Shown here: positions 3,297-26,494 of the stretch, piece after piece | Layout of the letters: every line of letters starts with the position of its first letter | Position numbering within the stretch: position 1 is the stretch's first letter | Notes under the pieces: generated by a model | The model's database searches: none | What the model was told of the DNA's origin: nothing | Seen by the model: the letters and a program-made list of their open reading frames with translations, nothing else | Program-made: the position numbers and the translations under genes | IMG/VR virus record: IMGVR_UViG_2700989507_000006 | DNA: 64,000 nucleotides | Source of the DNA: a virus | Taxonomy: Duplodnaviria > Heunggongvirae > Uroviricota > Caudoviricetes | Strand: one strand, 5' to 3'

Positions 3297-4097
3297 TTAG
3301 CGCGTTGCCGCGACAGGTACCAGCACACCAGCATCAAGCAATCGCTTCATCAGCCACTGCTGACCTTTGCCGGTTATACGAGTCGTGAAAGAAATCCTGC
3401 TTCCATTGCTTGTATCGATCACGGTTTCTTTAAGGGTGAAATACCCACGGGATATGTATTCTTGTTTGGGGACGTTCCTGCGTTCACCGGTTGCGATCAG
3501 AATTCCGTTATCACGCAACCAGGTGAAGAGATAGTTTTGGCCCAGGCCGAGCACTTTGGCATAGTTGCCGATTAGAACCCCGCTGGCGGTAGCAACGCGT
3601 TCGGCGAATTCGACTTTAGGTGCATCCATAAGCATTTTTTGCTCCAGCCGTTGCTTTTGCTCTGCCAGGTCGGCAGCCAAACGGAGAGCTTCAGGGAGAC
3701 TCTGCGGAATAGCAGGTTGTAATCTTCCGGCTCGATAGTCGATAAATGTCTGGTTTACCTTCAGCCGAAACGCGGGAGAAATCCAGCCTGCGTACTCCAC
3801 AGCGAGCAATTCATGGGCAAAAGTGCCGCCGCCACGGCCTTCGAACGAAACTATGCAATTCTGCATAGTTTCTTTTTCAAGCTCTTCGATGAGCTGTTTT
3901 GCTGACAGCGTTCTTAGCCATTGAGCTGGCGCTTTATGGGCACCGAGTCCGCTCGCTCTGTGTAGAGCATTAAGGTTGTAACGGCCAGCGCGGTCGGTCG
4001 TAATTTCAACACCACAAATAACGGGCAGAGTGGTTGAAGGATCGACATTTTGATGAAGGTTTGATATATTCATATCCGCATTGAATGTTTGTTGCAT
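3297..4097 (-). CDS. kilA: KilA (KilA-N domain plus antirepressor-type C-terminal domain)
   Basis: 266 aa; N-terminus matches the KilA-N domain pattern; C-terminal about 110 aa is paralogous to the C-terminus of the next gene; C1 operator immediately upstream. Confidence 0.65.
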   Translation of the reverse strand: MQQTFNADMNISNLHQNVDPSTTLPVICGVEITTDRAGRYNLNALHRASGLGAHKAPAQWLRTLSAKQLIEELEKETMQNCIVSFEGRGGGTFAHELLAVEYAGWISPAFRLKVNQTFIDYRAGRLQPAIPQSLPEALRLAADLAEQKQRLEQKMLMDAPKVEFAERVATASGVLIGNYAKVLGLGQNYLFTWLRDNGILIATGERRNVPKQEYISRGYFTLKETVIDTSNGSRISFTTRITGKGQQWLMKRLLDAGVLVPVAATR

Positions 4098-13474: not shown

Positions 13475-14904
13475 GTAAAACAACACCGACTAAAGACAGT
13501 ATTCGTGCAGAGTTTGAAGAGCTTGTCGAGAAAGATTCATTCTGGTCGAAGTTTGTCGGCTCTCAATTTGTCTCGATGCTGACATTGTTTATTACCCAGA
13601 TTGTCTACAGGTGCTTTCAGTATGCCGATGCGGCGCTGGCTGAAGGCTTTATATCGACCGCGACGCGGCGTTCCTCTATCCTGGCAGCGGCAGAAACGAA
13701 TAGTTACGTTGGTACCAAGCCAACACCGTCATCGGGGATGATTGAGATCACCGCCACAAGTGAAGATGCCCCAGCGGTAATTCCCAAAAACATGCCTTTA
13801 ATATCTGACGACCAGTACCCTTACATGACTATGGATGTATGCAGGTTGGTTGACGGCACCGGTACGGTAGAAGTGGCACAGTTGGAAATCCAGGAGGTGA
13901 CATATACCGTTACGGCTGCCAAAGAATTTCTGGAAGTCGTGTTATCAAAGGCTCTCACTGCTGTCTGCTATAAGCTGGAAGTATTCGTGACGACCGATGG
14001 TAAGACCACGCAGTGGTCTTCCAGCACAATGTTCCGGTTAGCTGGTAGTAAAAGCCAGGTCTACGTTGAGTTTTATAAACCATCCGAACAGTTGGGGGTC
14101 CGATTCGGCGATGGGCTAATTGGGCAAATACCGCCAGAAGGCTCGACAATTACGCTTAAGGTATGGTGCACCAACGGCGATATAACCCTGGTTGCTGGCC
14201 AAAACCTGACTCCTGTTGATTCTGCGGCTAATTTAGCTAATTTGATTTCAGTTAAGACAACGACACCTATAACCGCAGGTACCGATGCTGAAACAACGGA
14301 GATCACACGTAACCGTGCACAATATTACCTTGCCTATGATGATCAGGTCGTATGGGGCGGGGACTATACGTATTTTCTGGTTCGTAACATCCCGGGGCTG
14401 TCCTGGGTAAAGGCATGGGGCGAAGGCCAGCAAGAGAAATTAGATGGTGCTTATAATGTTCAGAATATCAATAAGATATTTATTTCAGGATGGCATCCAA
14501 ATAAAAGCCAGTCAGAGCTTGAAGAAATGATCCTGACTGCCTTTAAGAAGGTACCGAATGAACTGAACAAGAAATTCTCTTATAAAGAGGTCAGAAAACT
14601 ACCATTTAAGATAACCATCACCGGACGGATATCGGCAAGCCTGACCATTGAGAATGTGACCGATGAGCTGAAGTCGGCACTGGAAACAAAATTTGGGCGC
14701 GACTCAACTTTCTTTGATCCGAACCGCGTCGGAAAGTACATCCTGATTAAGAAAAAAGACGTTTGGGCGTTTATCGAAACGCTGGGTTATTTCCGCGACT
14801 TTTATCTGGAATTTGTCGAGTGGAATGAGTCCAACGGCTTTTACGATTTCGTTTATCTGGATACAGAAAACTCCACCTTTAATATTTCGTATGAGGAGGA
14901 GTGA
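13471..14904 (+). CDS. putative baseplate protein
   Basis: 477-aa ORF overlapping the upstream gene by 4 bp. Confidence 0.5.
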   Translation: MSKTTPTKDSIRAEFEELVEKDSFWSKFVGSQFVSMLTLFITQIVYRCFQYADAALAEGFISTATRRSSILAAAETNSYVGTKPTPSSGMIEITATSEDAPAVIPKNMPLISDDQYPYMTMDVCRLVDGTGTVEVAQLEIQEVTYTVTAAKEFLEVVLSKALTAVCYKLEVFVTTDGKTTQWSSSTMFRLAGSKSQVYVEFYKPSEQLGVRFGDGLIGQIPPEGSTITLKVWCTNGDITLVAGQNLTPVDSAANLANLISVKTTTPITAGTDAETTEITRNRAQYYLAYDDQVVWGGDYTYFLVRNIPGLSWVKAWGEGQQEKLDGAYNVQNINKIFISGWHPNKSQSELEEMILTAFKKVPNELNKKFSYKEVRKLPFKITITGRISASLTIENVTDELKSALETKFGRDSTFFDPNRVGKYILIKKKDVWAFIETLGYFRDFYLEFVEWNESNGFYDFVYLDTENSTFNISYEEE

Positions 14905-15740
14905 TGCAGCGTTCCTGGTTTAATAACCGGCTTACATCAGCTAAGCAAAAGTCATTGCTCTATAAATCATTGGCTGATTTGGTTCAGTCAATGATGGACA
15001 CCTTTGTTGACCCATGGTTGGAGCGAATTACCAACCGGAAGTCTATTTTCTCCATGAGCAAGGAGGATCTGGAGACCAGGACAAATGAACTTGGCCAGTT
15101 CTTTACTATCAGAACCTCGAACTCATCTTCCGTTCCGATGTTGTTACAACAGCGGCTTGATGAGATCCACTTTAAGGGAACTGAACGTCCTATAAACCAG
15201 ACAATTTACCGCGAATTTAACGGTATTTCTGTTTTATGGGATCCGATATATGCACCGGTGGACCTTGAGCGTCATCCCTATGGCACAGTTCTAATACCAG
15301 AAAGCACACTGGAGACTACCGGCGGCACATTCGGCGAGATGTTTCTGACTTCCAGAGGGATGATCAGTATTCCCATAAACAACCTGGCCCGGACAATGGG
15401 GATTACTGGCACGATAGATCAGTCCGCAATTACGGAAGAAATTCTCAGAAAGTTTAATCAGTTCGTAAAGCCTCTACTGCCACTGCATATAGTGTTTGAT
15501 GGGCTTACGCTCTATTTGTCGGTTGTTGTAAATGAACAGGCCGACATGATCACTTTGAACGAGATTTCTGATACCGAAAAAGCATTCTGCTGGTTTGAAA
15601 CTTCGGATACAACTTCGCTTACTGGAGTTACGTCGATTAGCGCCCCGATCACCGCAACGCCTGGTGGCACTATTGTGAAAGCGACACCTACGTTTGATCG
15701 CACACGCGCAGATGATTTGTTGCTGGATAGCGACGCCTGA
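14901..15740 (+). CDS. putative baseplate/tail protein
   Basis: 279-aa ORF overlapping the upstream gene by 4 bp; followed by a hairpin and promoter-like region. Confidence 0.45.
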   Translation: MMQRSWFNNRLTSAKQKSLLYKSLADLVQSMMDTFVDPWLERITNRKSIFSMSKEDLETRTNELGQFFTIRTSNSSSVPMLLQQRLDEIHFKGTERPINQTIYREFNGISVLWDPIYAPVDLERHPYGTVLIPESTLETTGGTFGEMFLTSRGMISIPINNLARTMGITGTIDQSAITEEILRKFNQFVKPLLPLHIVFDGLTLYLSVVVNEQADMITLNEISDTEKAFCWFETSDTTSLTGVTSISAPITATPGGTIVKATPTFDRTRADDLLLDSDA

Positions 15741-15818
15741 CAATCACCCCGTCCGCAGGGCGGGGTGACAAGTTACTTCTCTTACAATGAGGCTTCACAA
15801 CATTGATTAGGGAAAATC

Positions 15819-16253
15819 ATGTCTGACGTCTCAACAAACCTCTATAAGAGTCAGTTGTTGGACTATTACTATCAGCGGCGCGCTGAATCGTCCATTAACA
15901 AAGGCTCTCGATTTTTAATCAGCAAGGCCGTTTTCGGTACCAGTTCACTGGTTACTAAGAAAGGAGATGGCACTTATGAGATTGGAGAACTGCCAAAGGC
16001 TTTCGATCTGGCAGAACTGACCAGTCAATTTTGCACCATCAACCTCGTCCCAACCTACTCAGGCGGGATAATTACTGTCCGAATGGACCTTGATCAAAGC
16101 CAGTTGCAGGAAGGGAAAAACTACCCATTCAACACTCTGGTTGTTCTGGATAACGAGAACAAGCCAATCGCCATTATTTGTGTCCAGGAAGACTCGCTGT
16201 ATGTGGGCAAAACATATACCGCAGTTATGGCCATAAACACGACAACAGCATAA
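15819..16253 (+). CDS. tail-fibre-associated protein (P1 R-like by position)
   Basis: 144-aa ORF directly upstream of the tail fibre gene. Confidence 0.45.
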   Translation: MSDVSTNLYKSQLLDYYYQRRAESSINKGSRFLISKAVFGTSSLVTKKGDGTYEIGELPKAFDLAELTSQFCTINLVPTYSGGIITVRMDLDQSQLQEGKNYPFNTLVVLDNENKPIAIICVQEDSLYVGKTYTAVMAINTTTA

Positions 16254-16264
16254 GGATATGCTTG

Positions 16265-19207
16265 ATGAATGACGTTACAGTTGTTACATCAGTTACTTAC
16301 CCATCACCCGAGTCGTTGGCTCTGGTGGCTGATGTGCAATACCACGAACCATATCTGTCAGCCGCGCTAAACCGAAAATTCAGGGGGATTGTTGACCCGG
16401 GATTTTATGCCGGTTTCTTACCTAAGCCTGGCGGTGGGATGAACCTGTTAATCACCTCAGTGGATGGTGATAAAACCGCAGGCGCGGCGTCGGTGGATAT
16501 TGGTGAATTCTACCAGGTAACTATTCAGCATCGTAAGGATATTTCTCTTGCACTTAGCGCAGGTAAGAAATATGCAATTGTGCTGAAGGGAAGATATCTC
16601 CTTGGAGAGGATACCTATCAGGTTAATACAGCGTCACATATTCATGCGGCTGAATTTGTTACCAGAACCTATACCGATTCATATCAGTTGGGAGATGGGG
16701 AACTGCTTGTTTGTACGGTGAATATCCCTGCTGGCGTATCTGCCATTACCCAGGAGATGATTGATACATCCGAGCGTATTAACCGCACGATCGGCATTGA
16801 TATTTCAGACTCTGTAACCAGTACCAGAAGTGATGTTGCGGCAAGTTCGCTGGCGGTTAAAAAAGCCTACGATCTGGCAAAAAGCAAGTATACGGCGCAG
16901 GATGCAAGCACAACGCAAAAGGGATTAGTTCAGCTCAGTAGCGAAACTAACAGCGACAGCGAAACAATGGCGGCGACCCCTAAAGCCGTTAAGTCTGTAA
17001 AAGATCTTGCTGATACCAAAGCGCCAATAGAAAGCCCGAGTCTGACAGGAACGCCAACCGCGCCGACGGCAGCGCAAGGTACAAACAGCACGCAGATCGC
17101 AAATACAGCCTTTGTTAAGGAAGCTATAACTGCACTTATCAACGGTGCGCCTGGCACACTGGATACGCTGAAAGAAATAGCGGCTGCGATCAATAACGAC
17201 CCGAATTTCAGCACAACTATCAACAATGCCCTGGCTCTCAAAGCGCCTTTGGCAAGCCCTGCATTAACGGGTGTCCCTACTGCGCCGACCGCCGCACAGG
17301 GCACAAATAATACGCAGATTGCTACGACCGCTTATGTAAGAGCTGCCATATCCGCATTGGTTGGTTCATCACCAGAAGCTCTTGATACCCTGAATGAGCT
17401 TGCCGCAGCACTTGGCAATGACCCGAACTTTGCGACAACAATGACAAATGCGCTGGCAGGCAAACAGCCTCTGGATGCAACTTTAACCGCGCTCGCTGGC
17501 CTTGCGACTGGTGCAAACAAACTGCCTTATTTCACTGGTAAGGATACGGTAGCTCAGACTGATTTAACGTCAGTCGGTCGCGATATTCTGGCTAAAACAA
17601 GCACACTGGCCGTTATCCAATACCTTGGTTTAAGAGAACTCGGTACCAGCGGTGAAAAGATCCCCCTGTTGAGTACGGCTAACACATGGAGTGCACGCCA
17701 GACTTTCAACGGCGGGATCACCGGGGCGCTGACAGGGAACGCCGACACCGCGACGAAATTAAAAACAGCCATAAACATTAATGGCGTCAGATTCGATGGT
17801 TCTACGAACATTTCGATACCAACAATTACGTCTAGAGGACGCGTTACTGCGCTTACCGGTACAACGCAAGGTGCTGCTACTGGATTGCAGATGTATGAGG
17901 CATACAACAATGGCTACCCTTCCCCCTATGGCAATGTGCTTCACCTTAAAGGTGCCACCGCTGCTGGCGAAGGTGAGTTATTCGTTGGCTGGAGTGGCAC
18001 AAATGGCGCTCATGCACCTGCTTTCATTCGATCCAAAAGAGATAGCACTGCTGCGGCATGGTCCGAATGGGCACAGATCTATACGTCAAAAGATTCAGTT
18101 CCCGGCGTCAATGCTAAAGGGAATCAGGACACCTCTGGTAATGCGGCTACAGCGACCAAATTGCAGATAGCACGTACCATTAACGGTGTCTCGTTTGATG
18201 GTTCTAAAAATATTGAGTTAACGGCGGAAGATTTAAATCTTGAGCAAACTGTAGAATTAGCCGCAGGGGCATTACAGAAAAACCAGAACGGCGCAGATAT
18301 TCCAGGAAAAGATACCTTCACAAAAAATATTGGTGCATGTCGCGCTTTTCACGGTGCTATTAGTACAGGGGCAGGGAACTGGACAACGGCACAATTGATT
18401 GAATGGCTGGATTCTCAAGGGGCATTCAATCACCCATACTGGATGTGCAAATGTTCATGGTCATACGGCAATAATAAAATTATAACCGATACTGGCTGTG
18501 GAACTATTCATCTTGCAGGTTGTGTTATTGAGGTTATGGGTAATAAAGGAGCCATGACCATCCGTGTAACCACCCCGAGCACTTCCAGCGGTGGCGGAAC
18601 TACTAATGCACAATTTACTTATATAAACCACGGTGGAGATTATGCGCCAGGCTGGCGGCGTGACTACAGTACCAAAAATCAGCAGCCTGCATTTGCTTTA
18701 GGGCAAACAGGAAGTACTGTCGGAAATGATAAAGCTGTTGGCTGGAACTGGAATAGCGGGGTCTATAACGCAAATATTGGTGGCGCATCGACATTAATCC
18801 TCCACTTCAATATGAATACGGGGAGCAGCCCTGCTGTACAGTTCCGTGTGAATTACAGGAACGGTGGTATTTTTTATCGTTCAGCGCGTGATGGTTACGG
18901 ATTCGAAGCTGACTGGTCAGAATTTTACACCACAACACGCAAGCCATCAGCAGGAGATGTTGGTGCATATACCAAAGCGGAAGCGGACTCCCGTTATGTA
19001 CGTGATATCCGACTTGGTGGCGCATCATCATACAAACCAGCAAATAATGGCACAACATGGACACATCAGGCTCCATCTGGTTGCGCATATACCGGAATAA
19101 TTGTTCAGGATACAGGCTCAAACTCTGCCGATAATATTGGTGGTGTTTATTACAGACCAATTCAAAAAAATATTAATGGCACATGGTATAACGTATCGAG
19201 TATTTGA
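16265..19207 (+). CDS. S: tail fibre protein S (constant N-terminus, invertible variable C-terminus)
   Basis: Start taken at MNDVTVVTSV with RBS aagga (ORF track starts at 16178 in the R overlap); contains tandem tail-fibre repeats and Gly/Asn-rich C-terminal domain; crosses the left crossover site. Confidence 0.8.
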   Translation: MNDVTVVTSVTYPSPESLALVADVQYHEPYLSAALNRKFRGIVDPGFYAGFLPKPGGGMNLLITSVDGDKTAGAASVDIGEFYQVTIQHRKDISLALSAGKKYAIVLKGRYLLGEDTYQVNTASHIHAAEFVTRTYTDSYQLGDGELLVCTVNIPAGVSAITQEMIDTSERINRTIGIDISDSVTSTRSDVAASSLAVKKAYDLAKSKYTAQDASTTQKGLVQLSSETNSDSETMAATPKAVKSVKDLADTKAPIESPSLTGTPTAPTAAQGTNSTQIANTAFVKEAITALINGAPGTLDTLKEIAAAINNDPNFSTTINNALALKAPLASPALTGVPTAPTAAQGTNNTQIATTAYVRAAISALVGSSPEALDTLNELAAALGNDPNFATTMTNALAGKQPLDATLTALAGLATGANKLPYFTGKDTVAQTDLTSVGRDILAKTSTLAVIQYLGLRELGTSGEKIPLLSTANTWSARQTFNGGITGALTGNADTATKLKTAININGVRFDGSTNISIPTITSRGRVTALTGTTQGAATGLQMYEAYNNGYPSPYGNVLHLKGATAAGEGELFVGWSGTNGAHAPAFIRSKRDSTAAAWSEWAQIYTSKDSVPGVNAKGNQDTSGNAATATKLQIARTINGVSFDGSKNIELTAEDLNLEQTVELAAGALQKNQNGADIPGKDTFTKNIGACRAFHGAISTGAGNWTTAQLIEWLDSQGAFNHPYWMCKCSWSYGNNKIITDTGCGTIHLAGCVIEVMGNKGAMTIRVTTPSTSSGGGTTNAQFTYINHGGDYAPGWRRDYSTKNQQPAFALGQTGSTVGNDKAVGWNWNSGVYNANIGGASTLILHFNMNTGSSPAVQFRVNYRNGGIFYRSARDGYGFEADWSEFYTTTRKPSAGDVGAYTKAEADSRYVRDIRLGGASSYKPANNGTTWTHQAPSGCAYTGIIVQDTGSNSADNIGGVYYRPIQKNINGTWYNVSSI
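17029..17470 (+). repeat. tandem in-frame repeat within S (two copies of about 70 codons)
   Basis: Repeated peptide ...SP.LTG.PTAPTAAQGTN.TQIA.TA.V..AI.AL......LDTL.E.AAA..NDPNF.TT..NALA.K.PL. Confidence 0.6.
17613..17638. other. crossover site cixL (26-bp imperfect palindrome, core TT)
   Basis: ttatccaatacc-tt-ggtttaagagaa; the inner half starts the long inverted repeat; resembles gix/hix half-sites. Confidence 0.6.
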
Positions 19208-19209
19208 TT

Positions 19210-19743
19210 ATGATGCATTTAAAAAACATAAAGCCAGGCAATCCAAAAACCGAAGAGCAATATCTTTTAACTAAAAACTCAGGCGTCGTCTGGTTATGGA
19301 CCGAAGATGGTAAGAACTGGTATGAGGAACAAAAGAACTTTCAGGAAGACACCATAAAGATTGCATATGATGAAAATAATGTTATATGCGACGTGCAAAA
19401 GGATGTGACTGCAATTTGCCCGGAGGGAAAAAGTGTCGTTGAGGTTCCTGATATTACAGCAAATCGCCGGGCTGATATTTCTGGTAAATGGATGTTCAAA
19501 GATGGCGTAGTGATAAAGCGAACTTATACCGAGGAAGAGCAGAGGCAACAAGCGGAAAATGAAAAGCAAAGCCTGCTACAGCTCGTCAGGGATAAAACAC
19601 AGCTATGGGACTCACAGCTACGGCTGGGCATCATTTCCGACGAGAATAAACAAAAATTAACCGAGTGGATGCTCTATGCGCAGAAAGTCGAATCCACAGA
19701 CACCTCCCGCCTGCCAGTAACGTTTCCCGAACAACCAGAATGA
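19210..19743 (+). CDS. U: tail fibre assembly protein U
   Basis: Tail-fibre-assembly family signature (HLKNIKPGNPKT...WLWTEDGKNWYEE...KWMFKDGVVIKR); follows S directly. Confidence 0.8.
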   Translation: MMHLKNIKPGNPKTEEQYLLTKNSGVVWLWTEDGKNWYEEQKNFQEDTIKIAYDENNVICDVQKDVTAICPEGKSVVEVPDITANRRADISGKWMFKDGVVIKRTYTEEEQRQQAENEKQSLLQLVRDKTQLWDSQLRLGIISDENKQKLTEWMLYAQKVESTDTSRLPVTFPEQPE

Positions 19744-19746
19744 GAG

Positions 19747-19776
19747 AAGGCCCGATATCGGGCCTTAATTTTTATT
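19747..19776. terminator. bidirectional rho-independent terminator between convergent U and U'
   Basis: aaggcccgatatcgggcctt hairpin flanked by A/T runs on both sides. Confidence 0.55.
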
Positions 19777-20299
19777 CAGGCTTTTGTGGCCATTCAGGCT
19801 TTGCCGTATCCACACGGCTGACCATAACACTGTAGCGTTCCCATGCTTCCAGTCGTGTGCGTTCCTCGTCTGTTGCCATATTCAGCCTGACAGCGCGTTC
19901 CAGCGGCTGAATAACGCTTTCTGCTTCGGAAAGCAATGCGGCCTTTTGTGATTCGGCTTGTTGTTGCTGTTCGTCTGCCGTATAAATCCGCTTAATCACG
20001 GCACCATCCTTAAACATCCATTTACCTGAGTCATCAGCACGTCGGTTGGAGGTAATATCAGGAACCTCGACAACGCTGAAACCTTCAGGGTTAAGCGTTG
20101 AAGCATCTCTGGTGATGCCGACAATTATATTATTCTCGTCGTAAACAATCTTTATCGTGTCTTCCTGAAAATTACTTACTTCCTCATACCAGTTTTTTCC
20201 CTCTTCGGACCATAACCAGATAACATCAAAATTTTTTGTCAGTTGATATTGGGCAACAGTTTTTGGATTACCCGCAGTAATATTTTTTAAATGCTGCAT
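19772..20299 (-). CDS. alternative tail fibre assembly protein U'
   Basis: 175-aa paralogue of U on the opposite strand inside the invertible segment. Confidence 0.75.
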
Positions 20300-20302
20300 A
20301 AA

Positions 20303-21778
20303 TTACACCTGTGCGACGTTATACCATGTGCCATTGATGTATTTTTGTATTGGCCTGAATACTGCGGGGTCATCACCATCGACTTCACCGACAATACCAA
20401 GCCCGGTAATTACGTGCCCTGCTTTCTCATACATCACCCCTTTCTGCATAGTCTGGACAACACGTGTGCCAAGTCTGATATCTCTCACATAGCGGGAATC
20501 AAAGTTACCGTAATCCGAGGGATTAACACGCCCCGTAATATTTATGGTCTTATTACTTTGAATGCTTCCGGAAACAAAGCGCATAACATGGACGTTATTA
20601 GCATAAACATCCAGATTACCATCGCCATTTTGTTTAAATCCGGTGTCGTTATCACCAAGAACAATAGAGTTCCCACCCAACGCGTTATTCGTGCCAAGTG
20701 CCAGCCCGCCATCAATCCTGGCACCATTACCAACAGACACAACTCCTGTTCTTAAGTTGATGCCGAATGGCCTTAATGGCCCAATATCTCCATTTTCACC
20801 CTCATTTTCTCGTGTAGGGATGATATACAGGTTTTCTTCAGAACGGCGAAAAATAGCACCAAAAGATGAATTAAATATCCTCAGTGCATTGACTGTAGAT
20901 ATTTTTACTTCACTGCTGAAAAGGGCTTTAACAAGAACATACAGAGCATCCCATTTAAGATTCATCAGATCTTTTGTTGTGGTGCTCTGACGACTTCTCC
21001 ATTTGAAATATTCATTGCCGTTGTCACCTGTTTCAAACCACATGTATGAATCAGTGTCACCATCGGCATCATTTTTAAATCCAATCTTCGCCCAGTCAGT
21101 ATTTCGAATCCAGGCAAGGATTGAGTCGTTTTCAAAAGTAAGTCCGCCGGACAAGATATCGCCTGAACGCTGAACGGCATTATTTGCTTTATTAATGAAT
21201 TCCTGTAGATTTAAATCTTCCGCCGTTAGCTCAATGTTTTTAGAACCATCAAACGAGACACCGTTAATAGTACGTGCTGTCTGCAATTTGGTCGCTGTAG
21301 CCGCATTACCAGAGGTGTCCTGATTCCCTTTGGTATTAACGCCGGGAACGGAATCTTTTGACGTATAGATCTGTGCCCATTCGGACCATGCCGCAGCAGT
21401 GCTATCTCTTTTGGATCGAATGAAAGCTGGTGCATGAGCGCCATTTGTGCCACTCCAGCCAATGAGCAACTCGCCTTCACCAGTGGATGCAGCTCCCTTC
21501 AGGTGAAGTACATTCCCGTAAGTCGTCGGATAACCATTGTTGTATGCCTCATACATCTGCAATCCAGTAGCAGCACCTTGCGTTGTACCGGTAAGCGCAG
21601 TAACGCGTCCTCTAGACGTAATTGTTGGTATCGAAATGTTCGTAGAACCATCGAATCTGACGCCATTAATGTTTATGGCTGTTTTTAATTTCGTCGCGGT
21701 GTCGGCGTTCCCTGTCAGCGCCCCGGTGATCCCGCCGTTGAAAGTCTGGCGTGCACTCCATGTGTTAGCCGTGCTCAA
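20303..21778 (-). CDS. silent alternative tail-fibre C-terminal cassette Sv' (expressed only after inversion)
   Basis: N-terminal about 190 codons are about 97 percent identical to the matching S segment (the inverted repeat); the rest is a different C-terminal domain. The apparent Met start is fortuitous. Confidence 0.7.
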   Translation of the reverse strand: MSTANTWSARQTFNGGITGALTGNADTATKLKTAININGVRFDGSTNISIPTITSRGRVTALTGTTQGAATGLQMYEAYNNGYPTTYGNVLHLKGAASTGEGELLIGWSGTNGAHAPAFIRSKRDSTAAAWSEWAQIYTSKDSVPGVNTKGNQDTSGNAATATKLQTARTINGVSFDGSKNIELTAEDLNLQEFINKANNAVQRSGDILSGGLTFENDSILAWIRNTDWAKIGFKNDADGDTDSYMWFETGDNGNEYFKWRSRQSTTTKDLMNLKWDALYVLVKALFSSEVKISTVNALRIFNSSFGAIFRRSEENLYIIPTRENEGENGDIGPLRPFGINLRTGVVSVGNGARIDGGLALGTNNALGGNSIVLGDNDTGFKQNGDGNLDVYANNVHVMRFVSGSIQSNKTINITGRVNPSDYGNFDSRYVRDIRLGTRVVQTMQKGVMYEKAGHVITGLGIVGEVDGDDPAVFRPIQKYINGTWYNVAQV

Positions 21779-21808
21779 CAGGGGGATCTTTTCACCGCTG
21801 GTACCGAG

Positions 21809-21834
21809 TTCTCTTAAACCAAGGTTTAGGATTG
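21809..21834. other. crossover site cixR (26-bp imperfect palindrome, core AA)
   Basis: ttctcttaaacc-aa-ggtttaggattg; overlaps the invertase stop codon. Confidence 0.6.
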
Positions 21835-22386
21835 AAATGACGACGCCGGAAACTTCTTATAAAGCGTGGAAACAGCCACATCATAGATGATTGCAACCTG
21901 CTTACGGGGGATGCCATTCTCCAGCAATCGCCGCATTTGCTGCCATGTTTCTTCTTGGTATTTAGGCCGACGCCCACCTATACGACCTTCTGCGCGAGCT
22001 GCATCAAGTCCAGCGCGTGTACGTTCAACGATAAGCTCACGTTCCATTTCTGCCAGCGCCCCCATTACGTGAAAGAAAAAGCGCCCCATTGGTGTACTGG
22101 TGTCGATAGAGTCAGTGAGACTCCGGAAATTAATTCCTCTGTCACGCAGCTCTTCCACCAGCACAACCAAGTGACGCATGCTGCGCCCAAGACGATCTAA
22201 CTTCCATACGACCAGGGTGTCACCTCTGGAAAGCATACGCAAAACCTTTTTTAGCCCAGGGCGTTCAGTCTTTTTGCCGCTCGCCTTATCCTCAAAAATT
22301 AGCTCACATCCTGCGCTTTCAAGGGCATTTCGTTGCAAAGCAGTGTTTTGTTCATTTGTTGATACGCGTACATAGCCGATCAGCAT
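21826..22386 (-). CDS. cin: Cin-type DNA invertase (serine recombinase, Gin/Hin/Pin family)
   Basis: 186 aa beginning MLIGYVRVSTNEQNT, with catalytic serine region and C-terminal HTH; adjacent to the invertible segment. Confidence 0.9.
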   Translation of the reverse strand: MLIGYVRVSTNEQNTALQRNALESAGCELIFEDKASGKKTERPGLKKVLRMLSRGDTLVVWKLDRLGRSMRHLVVLVEELRDRGINFRSLTDSIDTSTPMGRFFFHVMGALAEMERELIVERTRAGLDAARAEGRIGGRRPKYQEETWQQMRRLLENGIPRKQVAIIYDVAVSTLYKKFPASSFQS

Positions 22387-22852
22387 GATTTTTACTCTAA
22401 TGCGTTGTTCTTATGAGTCTGCGAATTTTAAAGAACAAAGCGTTATGCACAGAAATAACAATCTGAATAGGTTCCTGCTTGATTTTTGTTAGATCCGGGA
22501 GGAGCTTATGCAGATTTTGATTTTTTTAATGTCCATTATTAGTGGAACCTATTTATTTCTTACTGGAGTTAGGCGTGGAGCTTATAAGCCATGTTTTTTA
22601 CATTGGCTTGAAGCATGGCTGCTTGCCATAAAAGGTGGTTTTGTTGGTTTTTGTCTTGCAGAAGTTCAGTGGGGAAACTCATTTTTGAATGTGGTTGCTT
22701 TTTTGATATGTAGTTGGAATAGCCATTTTGTATTAAGAATAACCAAAATATGGGTTTTTCACTTGATTTACGAATGTATTGGCAAATTATGAACAACCAG
22801 ATGAGAAGTTACTTTGCATACCATTACCTCCTGACAACGTAGGAGGGAACTT

Positions 22853-23182
22853 GTGCTTGACACACAGGAATTAGCTCCAGTTGCTATTGCGCTCCTGCTT
22901 TCAGTAATTGGTGGGATAGGCACGTTCCTGATGGATGTCCGAGACGGTCGCCAGTCTGGCAATTTGTTGGGATTGGTTACGGAGATCTTTGTTGCAGTGA
23001 CAGCTGGCGCGGTGGCGTACCTATTGGGGCAACACGAGGGCTGGGAGTTATCAATTACGTACTTAATGGTAACGATAGCCAGCAATAACGGTCATGAGGT
23101 GATTTCAGGGATGAAACGAGTGAATATCGATAGCATTCTGAATGTTCTTACAAGTTTGGTGAAAAAGGGAGGTGGGAAATGA
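22853..23182 (+). CDS. lydA: holin (LydA-like)
   Basis: 109 aa, GTG start with RBS aggaggga, hydrophobic TM segments and charged C-terminus; heads the darA operon. Confidence 0.6.
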   Translation: MLDTQELAPVAIALLLSVIGGIGTFLMDVRDGRQSGNLLGLVTEIFVAVTAGAVAYLLGQHEGWELSITYLMVTIASNNGHEVISGMKRVNIDSILNVLTSLVKKGGGK

Positions 23183-23622
23183 TTGGCTGGGGTGTATGCG
23201 TTCTTGCGTTAGCCTTAGCCGATCGCTATTTGCTAAAACGCAAGGACATCACGCATTTAGAACTTGGTGATGTGGAAATTAAACCGGGTTTCATCCGGGT
23301 GCCGTTCAAGTACCGGTCTAAATTCCCGTTTTTGCGCGGCGCAACGGTCAGATATTGGATCCGCGATGTTCAGAAGCCGACGACAGTGATTGAAGGTGAA
23401 CAACGTTGTCTGACGTCGGCTGAACAGGGCGAAAACAGTGAATGGTTGTACATACCCACTGAATATATGGGTAAAGGAGAGCGACTGTGGCATTTCAACG
23501 TCATGGTTACGCATGGCGACTCGTTCATTAACCCGTTGTATCGGATTTTCCCTGTTACTCAGCAAATCCGCAGAAGTTACGTAATAAATCTCGCACAGGA
23601 TGTGTCAGATGACGAAAAATAA
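23179..23622 (+). CDS. lydB: antiholin (LydB-like)
   Basis: 147-aa ORF overlapping the holin stop by 4 bp; assignment by position. Confidence 0.5.
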   Translation: MIGWGVCVLALALADRYLLKRKDITHLELGDVEIKPGFIRVPFKYRSKFPFLRGATVRYWIRDVQKPTTVIEGEQRCLTSAEQGENSEWLYIPTEYMGKGERLWHFNVMVTHGDSFINPLYRIFPVTQQIRRSYVINLAQDVSDDEK

Positions 23623-24211
23623 GTATGCAACGGTCGATTTTGACCAGGTTAATGAAAAGGGGCTGAAATCCCTTATCGCGGCGATCAATAAAACCGGTGT
23701 TACGGTAATTGAGGTTGACTCCAGCAACCGCGCAACAACGAAAGATGGCGTTAAAGTTAAAACCGCAAAGCTGGTTCTTAACGACGGACAAATTCTTGCC
23801 ATACAGGTAAACGATACTGGCGATATATCGTCTGTGAAACTGAATGGAAAAGCTATTCCTAACGCTCAGTCGCCGGATATCAAGACGCTTGGTACCGTCA
23901 TGGGACAGGCGGCCCGCAAAAACTCCGCAAAATTCCAGAAATCACTGATCGCCAAAGCGAAGCGTGTTGCCAATCCGGTAGACAAGAAACCGGCAGTTAA
24001 ATCCAACTTTCAGCGCCTGCAAGAAGCAAAACAGCGGAATGCTCAGGTGGTTGCCGCTTATAAGTCCGCGCAGAATTCGGTGTCTTTCAATCAACAGCAG
24101 ATCACTGATTTGCGGGCGAAGCTGGATAAGGAGACGGGCCGACTCAATAACGAAAAGGCACGGAATGGCGAACTCAAACGTCGTCTTAAGCAACTGAAAG
24201 CAGGAAATTAA
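23609..24211 (+). CDS. Hdf-like protein (shares a segment with DarA)
   Basis: About 200 aa, Lys-rich; shares the KNSAKFQ-containing segment with the next, larger gene. Confidence 0.5.
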   Translation: MTKNKYATVDFDQVNEKGLKSLIAAINKTGVTVIEVDSSNRATTKDGVKVKTAKLVLNDGQILAIQVNDTGDISSVKLNGKAIPNAQSPDIKTLGTVMGQAARKNSAKFQKSLIAKAKRVANPVDKKPAVKSNFQRLQEAKQRNAQVVAAYKSAQNSVSFNQQQITDLRAKLDKETGRLNNEKARNGELKRRLKQLKAGN

Positions 24212-24212
24212 C

Positions 24213-26132
24213 ATGGAACAGTTCAATATCAATAAAGGGGTGACGATCAAGCCTGGGCTTGACGTGCTTCCCCCGCCAGTGACTGATGATGAATATCGCG
24301 CATTAATGGCCGGTGAGGACCGCTATCTGATGACGGAATCCAACACCCTGGAGGAAATCGAGGCTACGTTCTTCTATGACACGCCGATCCACTGGTGTGC
24401 TACGGATTTATTGGAGGCGATTAGTTCTACTCGTTTGCAGTTACACCGGACCATGCAGGCATTTGTCCGGGCATTGAACCAGAAGCTGAATGGTACCGGA
24501 ATCTCTGCGGGGAGTGATAAAACGGGGGATGTGGCCCAGAGCGGCGCGCGCGCGATCGGCGGCGCTGAAATTGGCCGGGCACGTAACGTTAACGGGCTGC
24601 CAGTCCTGCCAGCCATTATTCCGCTCAGTGATGGTCAGACTATCAGTATTCTGTTTCATAGCCCGACAGCGGAAAACCGGATCACCAATAGCGATACGCT
24701 GGTTGCTTTCCAGTTCTTACTGAATAAAAAAGACGTTACTCACACCGTTGCTCCGATGAGTGGACGTGATATGACGCTGGCGCAGGTCACCATGAAACTT
24801 GCCAACCTTGCAGAGAAAAACTCGGCAAAATTCCAGCGTGCGCAGAAGAAGAAAAAAGCCCTTGTTGATGAAATAACCCAACTACAGGCTGACAGTGACC
24901 AGAAAGAGGATGCCATGAGCGACCTCGCGGATCAGGTGGCAGCGGTAGAAGGGCAGAAGGCAGATCTGGAGCAGAAAATTAACGCTGTTGCATCGGAAGC
25001 GGATTCTCTTTATGAAGAGAATGAGCGTTTGCAGACGGAGATTGATCAGCTCAATCGCACTGGTGGGCGCGATACCATTGCTCCAGCGGGGATGACTGGT
25101 GGGCACTCTCGCGCGCTGACGGATCGCCTTGCCAGTATCAAAAATCGTATGCATATGGACGGGGAAGTGACGCTCAGTAATGGTGCATCAATGAAGCAAT
25201 TCATTGGGGGCGGCGAAGGGTATATCCAGTTAACCGATCCGGATGGCAGCGTATACATGATCAAGGCTAAATCCATACAGGGTGTGGACATGGCAGATGC
25301 GATCGGCAAGCTGTTTAAAGCCTATAAAGCGGGTAATGTATCGGAATACCTGGTCCAACCAGAAGAACATAAACCGGAAAACGTCGAACCTGAACCAGCG
25401 GAGGATACCGGTAGCTCTTCGCCTGAACCAGAAGTCTCTGTAGGTGCATATCGATATGCCCTGCAAATGCGTCCGGCGGCCCCTGGCGCAATACCTGAAG
25501 GTAACAAAGCAATTCTGCCGCGCCCTGATGAAGGTGACCCGTATTATGAATATGCACGCTACGGCATTGCTACTTACGATACCCCGCTTTCTGATCAGCA
25601 AATGAGTGAGTACGACCTGAAGTTATTGCCTCGCGAGGATTCTTTCGACTTCCTGGCGAAGACACTTACTAATGGTCCGTTTGGCAAATATGCACAAAAA
25701 GCTCTGGAGCTGGCCACCAGCTCACCAGACGAGTTCCGCGTAATGCTGAAAACTCAGTTTCAAAAAACTTTCCCCAATATTGCGTTTCCTGGGGGCGCTG
25801 GCACCGAGAAAATGGTGCAGAGCATGATCAATGCATTGCAGGCCGAAGTCGGTGAGATTACTCAGCCAGAACCGGCCCCGGCACAGCCTGATGAAACGGT
25901 TAGCGAAGCAGATGCAGAGGCTAATAAAGCCATTGAATATCTCAATAACGTGATGGATATACAAAGCACTGACATGGCGGAGATCCGTAACGCCCGGGGC
26001 AATGTCCGGGAAGCGATTGCAGCCCTTCAGGCTGCCGGACGTTTTGAGGAAAACGAAGAGCTGGTTAACGGCGCAGCTCGCCACCTGGCTGATCTGCTGG
26101 TAGCAATCCAGAAAGCGGGGGTAGCGGCATGA
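24213..26132 (+). CDS. darA: DarA-like antirestriction/capsid protein
   Basis: 639 aa; position and size match P1 DarA within the lydAB-hdf-darA-ddrA-ddrB operon. Confidence 0.55.
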   Translation: MEQFNINKGVTIKPGLDVLPPPVTDDEYRALMAGEDRYLMTESNTLEEIEATFFYDTPIHWCATDLLEAISSTRLQLHRTMQAFVRALNQKLNGTGISAGSDKTGDVAQSGARAIGGAEIGRARNVNGLPVLPAIIPLSDGQTISILFHSPTAENRITNSDTLVAFQFLLNKKDVTHTVAPMSGRDMTLAQVTMKLANLAEKNSAKFQRAQKKKKALVDEITQLQADSDQKEDAMSDLADQVAAVEGQKADLEQKINAVASEADSLYEENERLQTEIDQLNRTGGRDTIAPAGMTGGHSRALTDRLASIKNRMHMDGEVTLSNGASMKQFIGGGEGYIQLTDPDGSVYMIKAKSIQGVDMADAIGKLFKAYKAGNVSEYLVQPEEHKPENVEPEPAEDTGSSSPEPEVSVGAYRYALQMRPAAPGAIPEGNKAILPRPDEGDPYYEYARYGIATYDTPLSDQQMSEYDLKLLPREDSFDFLAKTLTNGPFGKYAQKALELATSSPDEFRVMLKTQFQKTFPNIAFPGGAGTEKMVQSMINALQAEVGEITQPEPAPAQPDETVSEADAEANKAIEYLNNVMDIQSTDMAEIRNARGNVREAIAALQAAGRFEENEELVNGAARHLADLLVAIQKAGVAA

Positions 26133-26494
26133 CACTATCAGCTATTGAGTTAATGGACCTCAGCGACAAGTTGGATTCTCTGATGTCCAAAGCTGCTACC
26201 GCGAGTGGCATGGAGTTGTTGGATATCAGCGATGAAATTGACCAGATCATGCAACAGATGGGGTACGGCGCGTCCGGCGGCGGTAGTGGTGAGGAAAAAC
26301 AACCTTCGGTACATGATGGTGTGCCAAAACTGGTTGCTGATTTCCTGGCTGATAAATTCGTCGATCAGAGCACCGATGCATTTATCGGTACGTTGCAGGA
26401 CTTGAGTCAATATGTTGGCACATACATCGATCTGGACCAGGTTAAACAACACACGGCGGCATGGATAGCCGCCAACATTAAAGAGGCAGCATAA
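26129..26494 (+). CDS. DdrA-like protein
   Basis: 121-aa acidic ORF overlapping the DarA stop by 4 bp. Confidence 0.45.
   Translation: MTLSAIELMDLSDKLDSLMSKAATASGMELLDISDEIDQIMQQMGYGASGGGSGEEKQPSVHDGVPKLVADFLADKFVDQSTDAFIGTLQDLSQYVGTYIDLDQVKQHTAAWIAANIKEAA

Follow-up and report, generated by a model that had tools for sequence, protein, structure and literature searches.

A probable P1-type Cin/cix tail-fibre switch with unequal inverted-repeat arms in a plasmid prophage

A 64,000-nt stretch of viral DNA (the window, in what follows), taken from the Caudoviricetes record IMGVR_UViG_2700989507_000006 in IMG/VR, carries two opposed sets of tail-fibre tip genes enclosed by long, imperfectly matching inverted repeats. 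Which inversion system is this, does it flip, and why do its two arms differ? A preliminary description proposed a gix/hix-like crossover that exchanges one variable fibre part and its chaperone gene (Sv-U) for another (Sv'-U') behind a constant fibre part (Sc). The comparisons reported here support that proposal and give the switch its name. We put at about 93% the probability that the region from 15.8 to 22.4 kb is the invertible C segment of a P1-like (Punavirus) plasmid prophage of Escherichia coli, served by the invertase Cin and its crossover sites, cix. In phage P1, Cin inverts the C segment at cix, which selects between S and S' fibres (bioRxiv 10.1101/2022.07.24.501295; PMC6906374).

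A P1-type C segment in the window

The switch is thus one already known. Judged by sequence, every part of the P1 C segment is present here, intact and almost unchanged, and so are all the sequence-testable defining features of its Cin/cix system: inverted crossover sites, a small serine recombinase, a recombinational enhancer, two opposed fibre sets, and the Punavirus gene order around them.

The crossover sites had been predicted at 17613-17638 and 21809-21834, with cores TT and AA, and both predictions hold to the letter. Each 26-bp site is identical to an annotated cix site of P1 (AF234172) and P7 (AF503408); the two are imperfectly palindromic, lie in inverted orientation and have matching central dinucleotides. 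The 3' end of cin extends into the site nearest to it. The 17-nt inner half plus core that the sites share has exactly two matches in the window, inverted relative to each other (chance expectation 0.13 with three mismatches), and two matches to the 17-nt half were found in 0 of 100 shuffles.

The invertase has the architecture of a small serine recombinase, an N-terminal resolvase domain followed by a C-terminal helix-turn-helix, and Ser9 is present in MLIGYVRVSTNEQ. It is identical to P1 Cin at 184 of 186 residues (99%) and differs from P7 Cin at one; the exact protein occurs on 228 contigs in a public protein collection. Within the 5' part of the gene lies the enhancer, and the annotated 68-nt enhancer of P7 is present exactly, at 22301-22368. 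A Fis-binding role is predicted for this element from its likeness to P1 and P7. By analogy with P1, Cin would be active and the element would depend on Fis.

Between the cix cores lie 4,198 bp. The two opposed sets of fibre tip and chaperone are inside this segment, the promoter and the constant part are outside it, and both possible fusions are in frame. Sv' has neither a start codon nor a promoter of its own; the late promoter LPs, by identity to the P7 annotation, drives R-S-U from its position outside the invertible segment. The gene order, bplA-16-R-S-U-U'-Sv'-cin-lydC-lydA-lydB-hdf-darA, is collinear with P7 and P1, the flank beyond cin (lydC, lydA, lydB, hdf, darA) is like that of P1, and the flanks match those of P7 and P1 collinearly at 93-99% (blastn). 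An exact-protein look-up led to an E. coli contig of 95,299 bp (L239; WXYV01000004.1, assembly GCA_015687505.1) that is 100% identical to window positions 13772-26299 in the same orientation, and in which the Pfam domains Phage_P1_Gp16, Phage_P1_tail_fiber_R, LydB and DarA are found. Among annotated phages, plasmids and complete E. coli genomes there was no near-identical closed record of this mosaic; the best reached 93% coverage at 91% identity.

Table. Coordinates in the window of the C segment parts and of the adjoining fibre genes
Feature	Position	Strand	Evidence and remarks
LPs, late promoter	15770..15789	+	-22 box AAGTTACTT, -10 TACAAT; collinear with annotated P7 LPs, one spacer mismatch
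R, tail-fibre structure or assembly, 144 aa	15819..16253	+	open reading frame; collinear with P7/P1 gpR; Phage_P1_tail_fiber_R in L239
Sc, constant N-terminal part of S, residues 1-453	16265..17624	+	about 94.6% nt identity to P1/P7 Sc; Phage_fiber_2 repeats
cix, Sc side	17613..17638	.	+ strand TTATCCAATACCTTGGTTTAAGAGAA; core TT at 17625-17626; reverse complement TTCTCTTAAACCAAGGTATTGGATAA equals the Sc-side cix of P1 and P7
Left arm	17625..18240	+	patch allele A (P1 type) at 17914-17984
Sv, expressed variable part	17625..19207	+	open reading frame; gp37_C domain; homologue of P1 Sv'
U, tail-fibre assembly chaperone, 177 aa, expressed	19210..19743	+	Caudo_TAP E=1e-35; exact protein public; homologue of P1 U'
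Terminator-like hairpin between convergent U and U'	19747..19766	+	GC-rich stem, then T run
U', alternative chaperone, 175 aa, silent	19772..20299	-	Caudo_TAP E=1e-36; homologue of P1 U
Sv', alternative variable part, silent	20303..21822	-	frame open to the crossover; Gp34_trimer domain; homologue of P1 Sv
Right arm	21207..21822	-	patch allele B (P7 type) at 21463-21533
cix, cin side	21809..21834	.	TTCTCTTAAACCAAGGTTTAGGATTG; core AA at 21821-21822; equals the cin-side cix of P1 and P7
cin, serine DNA invertase, 186 aa	21826..22386	-	full-length Resolvase (E=4e-51) and HTH_7 (E=2e-18)
Recombinational enhancer in the 5' part of cin	22297..22368	-	69/72 nt identical to annotated P1 enhancer

What would the other orientation make? 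The preliminary description expected it to fuse the constant part of S to Sv' and to pair the product with U', and inversion in silico gives just this arrangement: Sc reads in frame into Sv' to yield a 959-aa S', the start of U' lies three bases past its stop, and the junction sequences within the 26-bp sites are left unchanged. In the orientation of the window, full-length S spans 16265-19207 (980 aa; the exact protein is WP_072053457.1). Natural full-length proteins of the S' fusion type, of 958 aa, are 95% and 94% identical to the predicted fusion, and P1 S is 80% identical to it over its full length. By homology, the expressed Sv-U set corresponds to P1 Sv'-U' and the silent set to P1 Sv-U, so that the window is the counterpart of the P1 C(-) state; the labels Sv and Sv' are positional.

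Under the proposed mechanism Cin, encoded just outside one end of the segment, would bind both cix sites and, presumably stimulated by host Fis at the enhancer in its own gene, would make 2-bp staggered cuts at the central dinucleotides, rotate the strands and invert the 4,198 bp. In the orientation shown, Sc-Sv would be expressed as the 980-aa S with U co-transcribed; in the inverted orientation, Sc-Sv' would give the 959-aa S', followed by U'.

Divergence of the inverted-repeat arms

Inverted repeats of about 0.62 kb had been described as starting at each site, and alignment of the two arms bears this out. A repeat search returns 17615-18247 against 21200-21832 (633 nt, 94% complementary); counted from the crossover, the arms are 616 nt long and differ by 34 mismatches and no insertions or deletions (94.5% identity). 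They do encode the first residues of both cassettes, as had been stated, with about 205 residues in place of the estimated 190. Over the first 206 residues of the variable parts the arms differ at 10, and the contrasts PSPYGN versus PTTYGN and LFVGW versus LLIGW are correct on translation.

The mismatches are distributed unevenly: one falls in the outermost 289 nt, 24 are crowded into a 71-nt patch, and nine lie further inward. The patch accounts for seven of the 10 amino-acid differences; most of its 24 nucleotide differences are synonymous. The arms also hold a 239-nt stretch of perfect identity. The earlier observation that the arms have diverged and are not fully homogenised is real, but there is nothing special in it when the family is considered. 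We surveyed 18 distinct P1-family C segments, namely P1, P7 and IMG/VR loci found through Cin and the cix site; their arms range from 145 to 856 nt in length and from 83.7 to 100% in identity. Among the long arms, identity is 83.7% in L212, 85.6% in L101, 94.5% in the window, 97.4% in L086, 99.3% in P1, 99.8% in L087 and 100% in L103. This range places the window in the middle and makes its divergence unremarkable.

The origin of the patch can be traced. On the Sc side it is the P1 allele (A); on the cin side it is the other allele (B), 100% identical to the corresponding stretch of the Sc-side arm of P7, an arm that is 98.5% identical over its whole length. Both alleles occur commonly: 32 copies of A and 8 of B were counted across the loci. 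Allele A stands on both arms in P1, L086, L101 and L103, and in L212, whose cassettes are collinear, the two patch alleles are linked to the cassettes the other way round. The pattern reads as mosaic recombination, mainly the import of one allele patch, and not as slow drift. The arm differences would then record homologous exchange with other phages together with occasional gene conversion between the arms. Arms of 616 nt are not needed for the Cin crossover; they exist because both cassettes start with the same fibre module. Where members of the family have arms as short as 145-189 nt, both orientations are still seen.

A separate observation concerns a very close relative of the window, contig L242, which is 99.6% identical elsewhere to the inverted window: at positions 3421-3491 its Sv-linked arm carries allele B and not A, which looks like gene conversion of the patch.

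Orientation of the segment and rival readings

Does the segment flip? In the P1 family it evidently does. Two independently assembled loci, L088 and L091, have a 4,565-nt segment in common (99.89% identity) that points in opposite directions in the two, while the cin flank is collinear; the inverted block begins within the cix site. Relative to the window, the segment is inverted in P1, L082, L087, L091, L096 and L103 and collinear in P7, L083, L086, L088, L092, L095, L098 and L101. Closed E. coli genomes likewise contain both states: cin adjoins a cassette of the Sv type in 39 records and one of the Sv' type in 18.

For this very element, the evidence is suggestive: three metagenome contigs, L240, L241 and L242, align collinearly with the inverted isomer built in silico, at 99.6-99.99% identity. 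L240 (JGI 3300014523) matches the isomer over 7,657 nt with a single mismatch, the outermost single-nucleotide polymorphism (SNP) of the arms, where it has the base of the other arm. In L241 (ERZ28646798), all 36 arm-diagnostic positions accompany the Sv cassette to the cin side, which locates the exchange within 52 nt around the cix core. L242 (ERZ652612) matches over 6,231 nt with 25 mismatches, of which 24 represent the patch converted to the other allele.

Several results weigh against taking these contigs as proof of inversion. All three end inside the opposite arm and cross at least 240 nt of arm identity; in L242 the patch is of the other allele, which may bring the arms of that contig to more than 400 nt of identity. 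Contig ends within an arm, at least 240 nt of identity and the outermost SNP of L240 together mean that the path choice of an assembler could mimic inversion. At the protein level, a collection of about 15 billion proteins does not contain the exact S' fusion; it has the exact native S on only two contigs, which makes this absence weak negative evidence. The Sc-Sv' junction can be distinguished only by SNPs that P7-like phages natively carry.

We rejected as inversion evidence the contigs that end at cix or in the arms (L084, L085, L094 and L099; L243-L248), because such breaks arise at any collapsed inverted repeat. L243-L248 are six short public contigs (from 17787-21660 to 18181-21266) that match the interior of the segment at 100% identity; their ends are symmetric in both arms, at offsets of 162, 170, 290, 472, 484 and 556 from the crossover, and in L243 (k127) and L244 (k119) they lie k nt beyond the outermost SNP of the patch, which shows assembly breakage at the repeat. 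Two further loci have unusual structures. L103 (1-5293) has cin sequence at both ends, inverted, with two cin-type outer half-sites and arms that are 100% identical; L215 (91-4123) has two Sc-type outer half-sites. In both cases the assembly has probably folded back at the inverted repeat, the alternative being real duplications. Assemblies routinely break or pick arbitrary paths at the arms, and the orientation in which such an element is deposited is not to be taken as fixed.

Could the window nevertheless hold a frozen relic, with the anatomy of the P1 switch but no flipping (owing, for instance, to the two Cin substitutions or to weak cin expression), so that only the Sc-Sv fibre is made? 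Disabled switches have been described in P1-like plasmids (PMC6906374). The missing S' fusion agrees with such a state, as does the one contig compared of the two that carry the exact S, L239, which has the orientation of the window. Yet all components are intact and near-identical to functional P1 and P7 parts, the silent Sv' and U' retain open frames of full length, the recurrence of the exact Cin allele across its 228 contigs points to a maintained gene, and three contigs match the inverted isomer; we regard a relic as very unlikely. A working switch might also be turned by something other than Cin. Inversion could proceed mainly by RecA-dependent homologous recombination between the 0.6-kb arms and not by Cin at cix, with the arm mismatches as the footprint of crossover. 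The 239 nt of perfect identity would be ample for RecA, the base of L240 at the outermost SNP is what a crossover inside the arm would give, L242 has its converted patch, and the alleles in L212 show that the patch is not tied to a given cassette. Against this, the diagnostic positions in L241 moved with the cassette, so that exchange occurred close to the cix core; the inverted block of L088 and L091 starts within the cix site; members with the shortest arms still occur in both orientations; and the patterns of L240 and L242 may also be assembly artefacts. P1 cin mutants are locked, hence homologous inversion is rare. Taken as the main route, RecA is scarcely credible here.

The divergence of the arms invites a reading of its own, in which selection, and not neutral mosaicism, maintains two proximal fibre modules that differ in function, each co-adapted with the distal tip that it carries. 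The concentration of amino-acid differences in the patch fits this idea, and the heterozygous state is kept in the identical copies L239 and L243-L245. The distribution of the alleles does not fit: linkage is opposite in L212, L242 has allele B on its Sv-linked arm, and P1, L086, L101 and L103 have allele A on both arms. Such varied linkage implies that either allele works with either tip, and the patch differences are mostly synonymous; we consider co-adaptation most improbable. A different extension would take the SNP swap of L240 and the patch conversion of L242 as real homologous crossover and gene conversion within the arms. In natural populations the proximal module would then serve as a recombination landing pad through which tips move from phage to phage and from one side of the switch to the other, alongside flipping by Cin. 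This is conceivable but doubtful. The reading that we prefer throughout is that of a C segment inverted by Cin at cix, whose arms have been made unequal by mosaic recombination.

Relatives, neighbouring parts and consequences

How close is the window to the systems already described? P1 (AF234172 / NC_005856) has the same two cix sites and, but for the few substitutions given above, the same Cin (184/186 aa) and enhancer (69/72 nt). It also has the same plan, with Sc outside, two opposed Sv-U sets inside and cin beside one cix, and similar dimensions (a segment of 4,258 bp against 4,198 bp here, and arms of about 0.6 kb, 613 nt in P1). It differs in that its arms diverge at only four positions (99.3% identity) against 34 here, in its cassettes, which are 83-89% identical at the nucleotide level in a mosaic pattern, and in the orientation of the deposited sequence, which is opposite, so that the window expresses the homologue of P1 S'/U'. 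P7 (AF503408) and RCS47 are the best matches among phage records, at 87% coverage and 91% identity, collinear and in the same orientation; P1 and D6 follow. Cin of P7 is one residue apart, the enhancer, LPdar and Op(lydC) are identical, and LPs is one spacer base apart. The Sc-side arm of P7 is the one that resembles the cin-side arm of the window at 98.5%, patch allele B included. Unlike in the window, however, the P7 arms are in register for only 145 nt, the segment measures 4,009 bp, the annotation divides U into Ua and Ub, and the cassette tips differ. The best relative changes every few hundred bases when best matches are taken tile by tile across the region. The differences from P1 and P7 are confined to cassette alleles and to the degree of arm identity, and both are within the normal variation of the family.

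More distant systems use the same recombinase family, mechanism and type of site, 26 bp with a 2-bp core: the Gin/gix G segment of Mu (also in D108 and SfMu), Salmonella Hin/hix and e14 Pin. The S-U-U'-S' region of Mu and D108 is about 86% identical at the nucleotide level to the unique part of the window's segment (about 18269-21165). Mu departs from the window in being a transposable phage, in using Gin as its invertase and in placing the crossover elsewhere within the S gene. The inverted repeats of Mu are short, 34 bp. Plasmid p15B, whose Min system has a Din-family invertase acting on tail-fibre gene segments, is a P1-related plasmid prophage (PMC6906374). It has several crossover sites that shuffle many segments, whereas the 64 kb analysed here contain exactly two, as expected of a simple two-state switch. 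We considered a multi-inversion system of the p15B kind and rejected it; extra or quasi-cix sites, with up to three mismatches, are absent from the window.

Several neighbouring parts deserve mention. Direct repeats in Sc at 16900-17500 (of the form …SP.LTG.PTAPTAAQGTN.TQIA.TA.V…, Phage_fiber_2) are the counterparts of the repeated elements a/b annotated in P1 Sc. The hairpin between U and U' would terminate the fibre operon in the orientation shown; its T run on the opposite strand is weaker. Upstream of lydA, at 22806-22824, lies a second late promoter, LPdar; the palindromic -22 box AAGTTACTT is common to LPs and LPdar, and the two promoters also surface together as a direct-repeat family (D5). 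Directly upstream of the cin start codon, 17 nt at 22391-22407 repeat without change the sequence that P7 has annotated as Op(lydC), an operator for the C1 repressor. The Sv tip and the 5' half of U (18850-19560) are 98.7% identical to unrelated E. coli plasmids of about 48-50 kb (NZ_CP062206.1, NZ_CP035864.1) and only 80-88% identical to P1-family loci, which points to horizontal sharing of this receptor-binding tip with elements of a different type.

Characterisation of the Cin/cix C segment goes back to the 1980s, and the value of the present locus as a discovery is accordingly small. Its value lies in annotation: the prophage is to be described as able to present two fibres, of which the current one is of the P1 S' type and the silent one of the P1 S type. 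Since the segment has two states, one lysogen population would release virions with two types of receptor-binding tip, and by analogy with P1 this element may thereby gain a wider host range.

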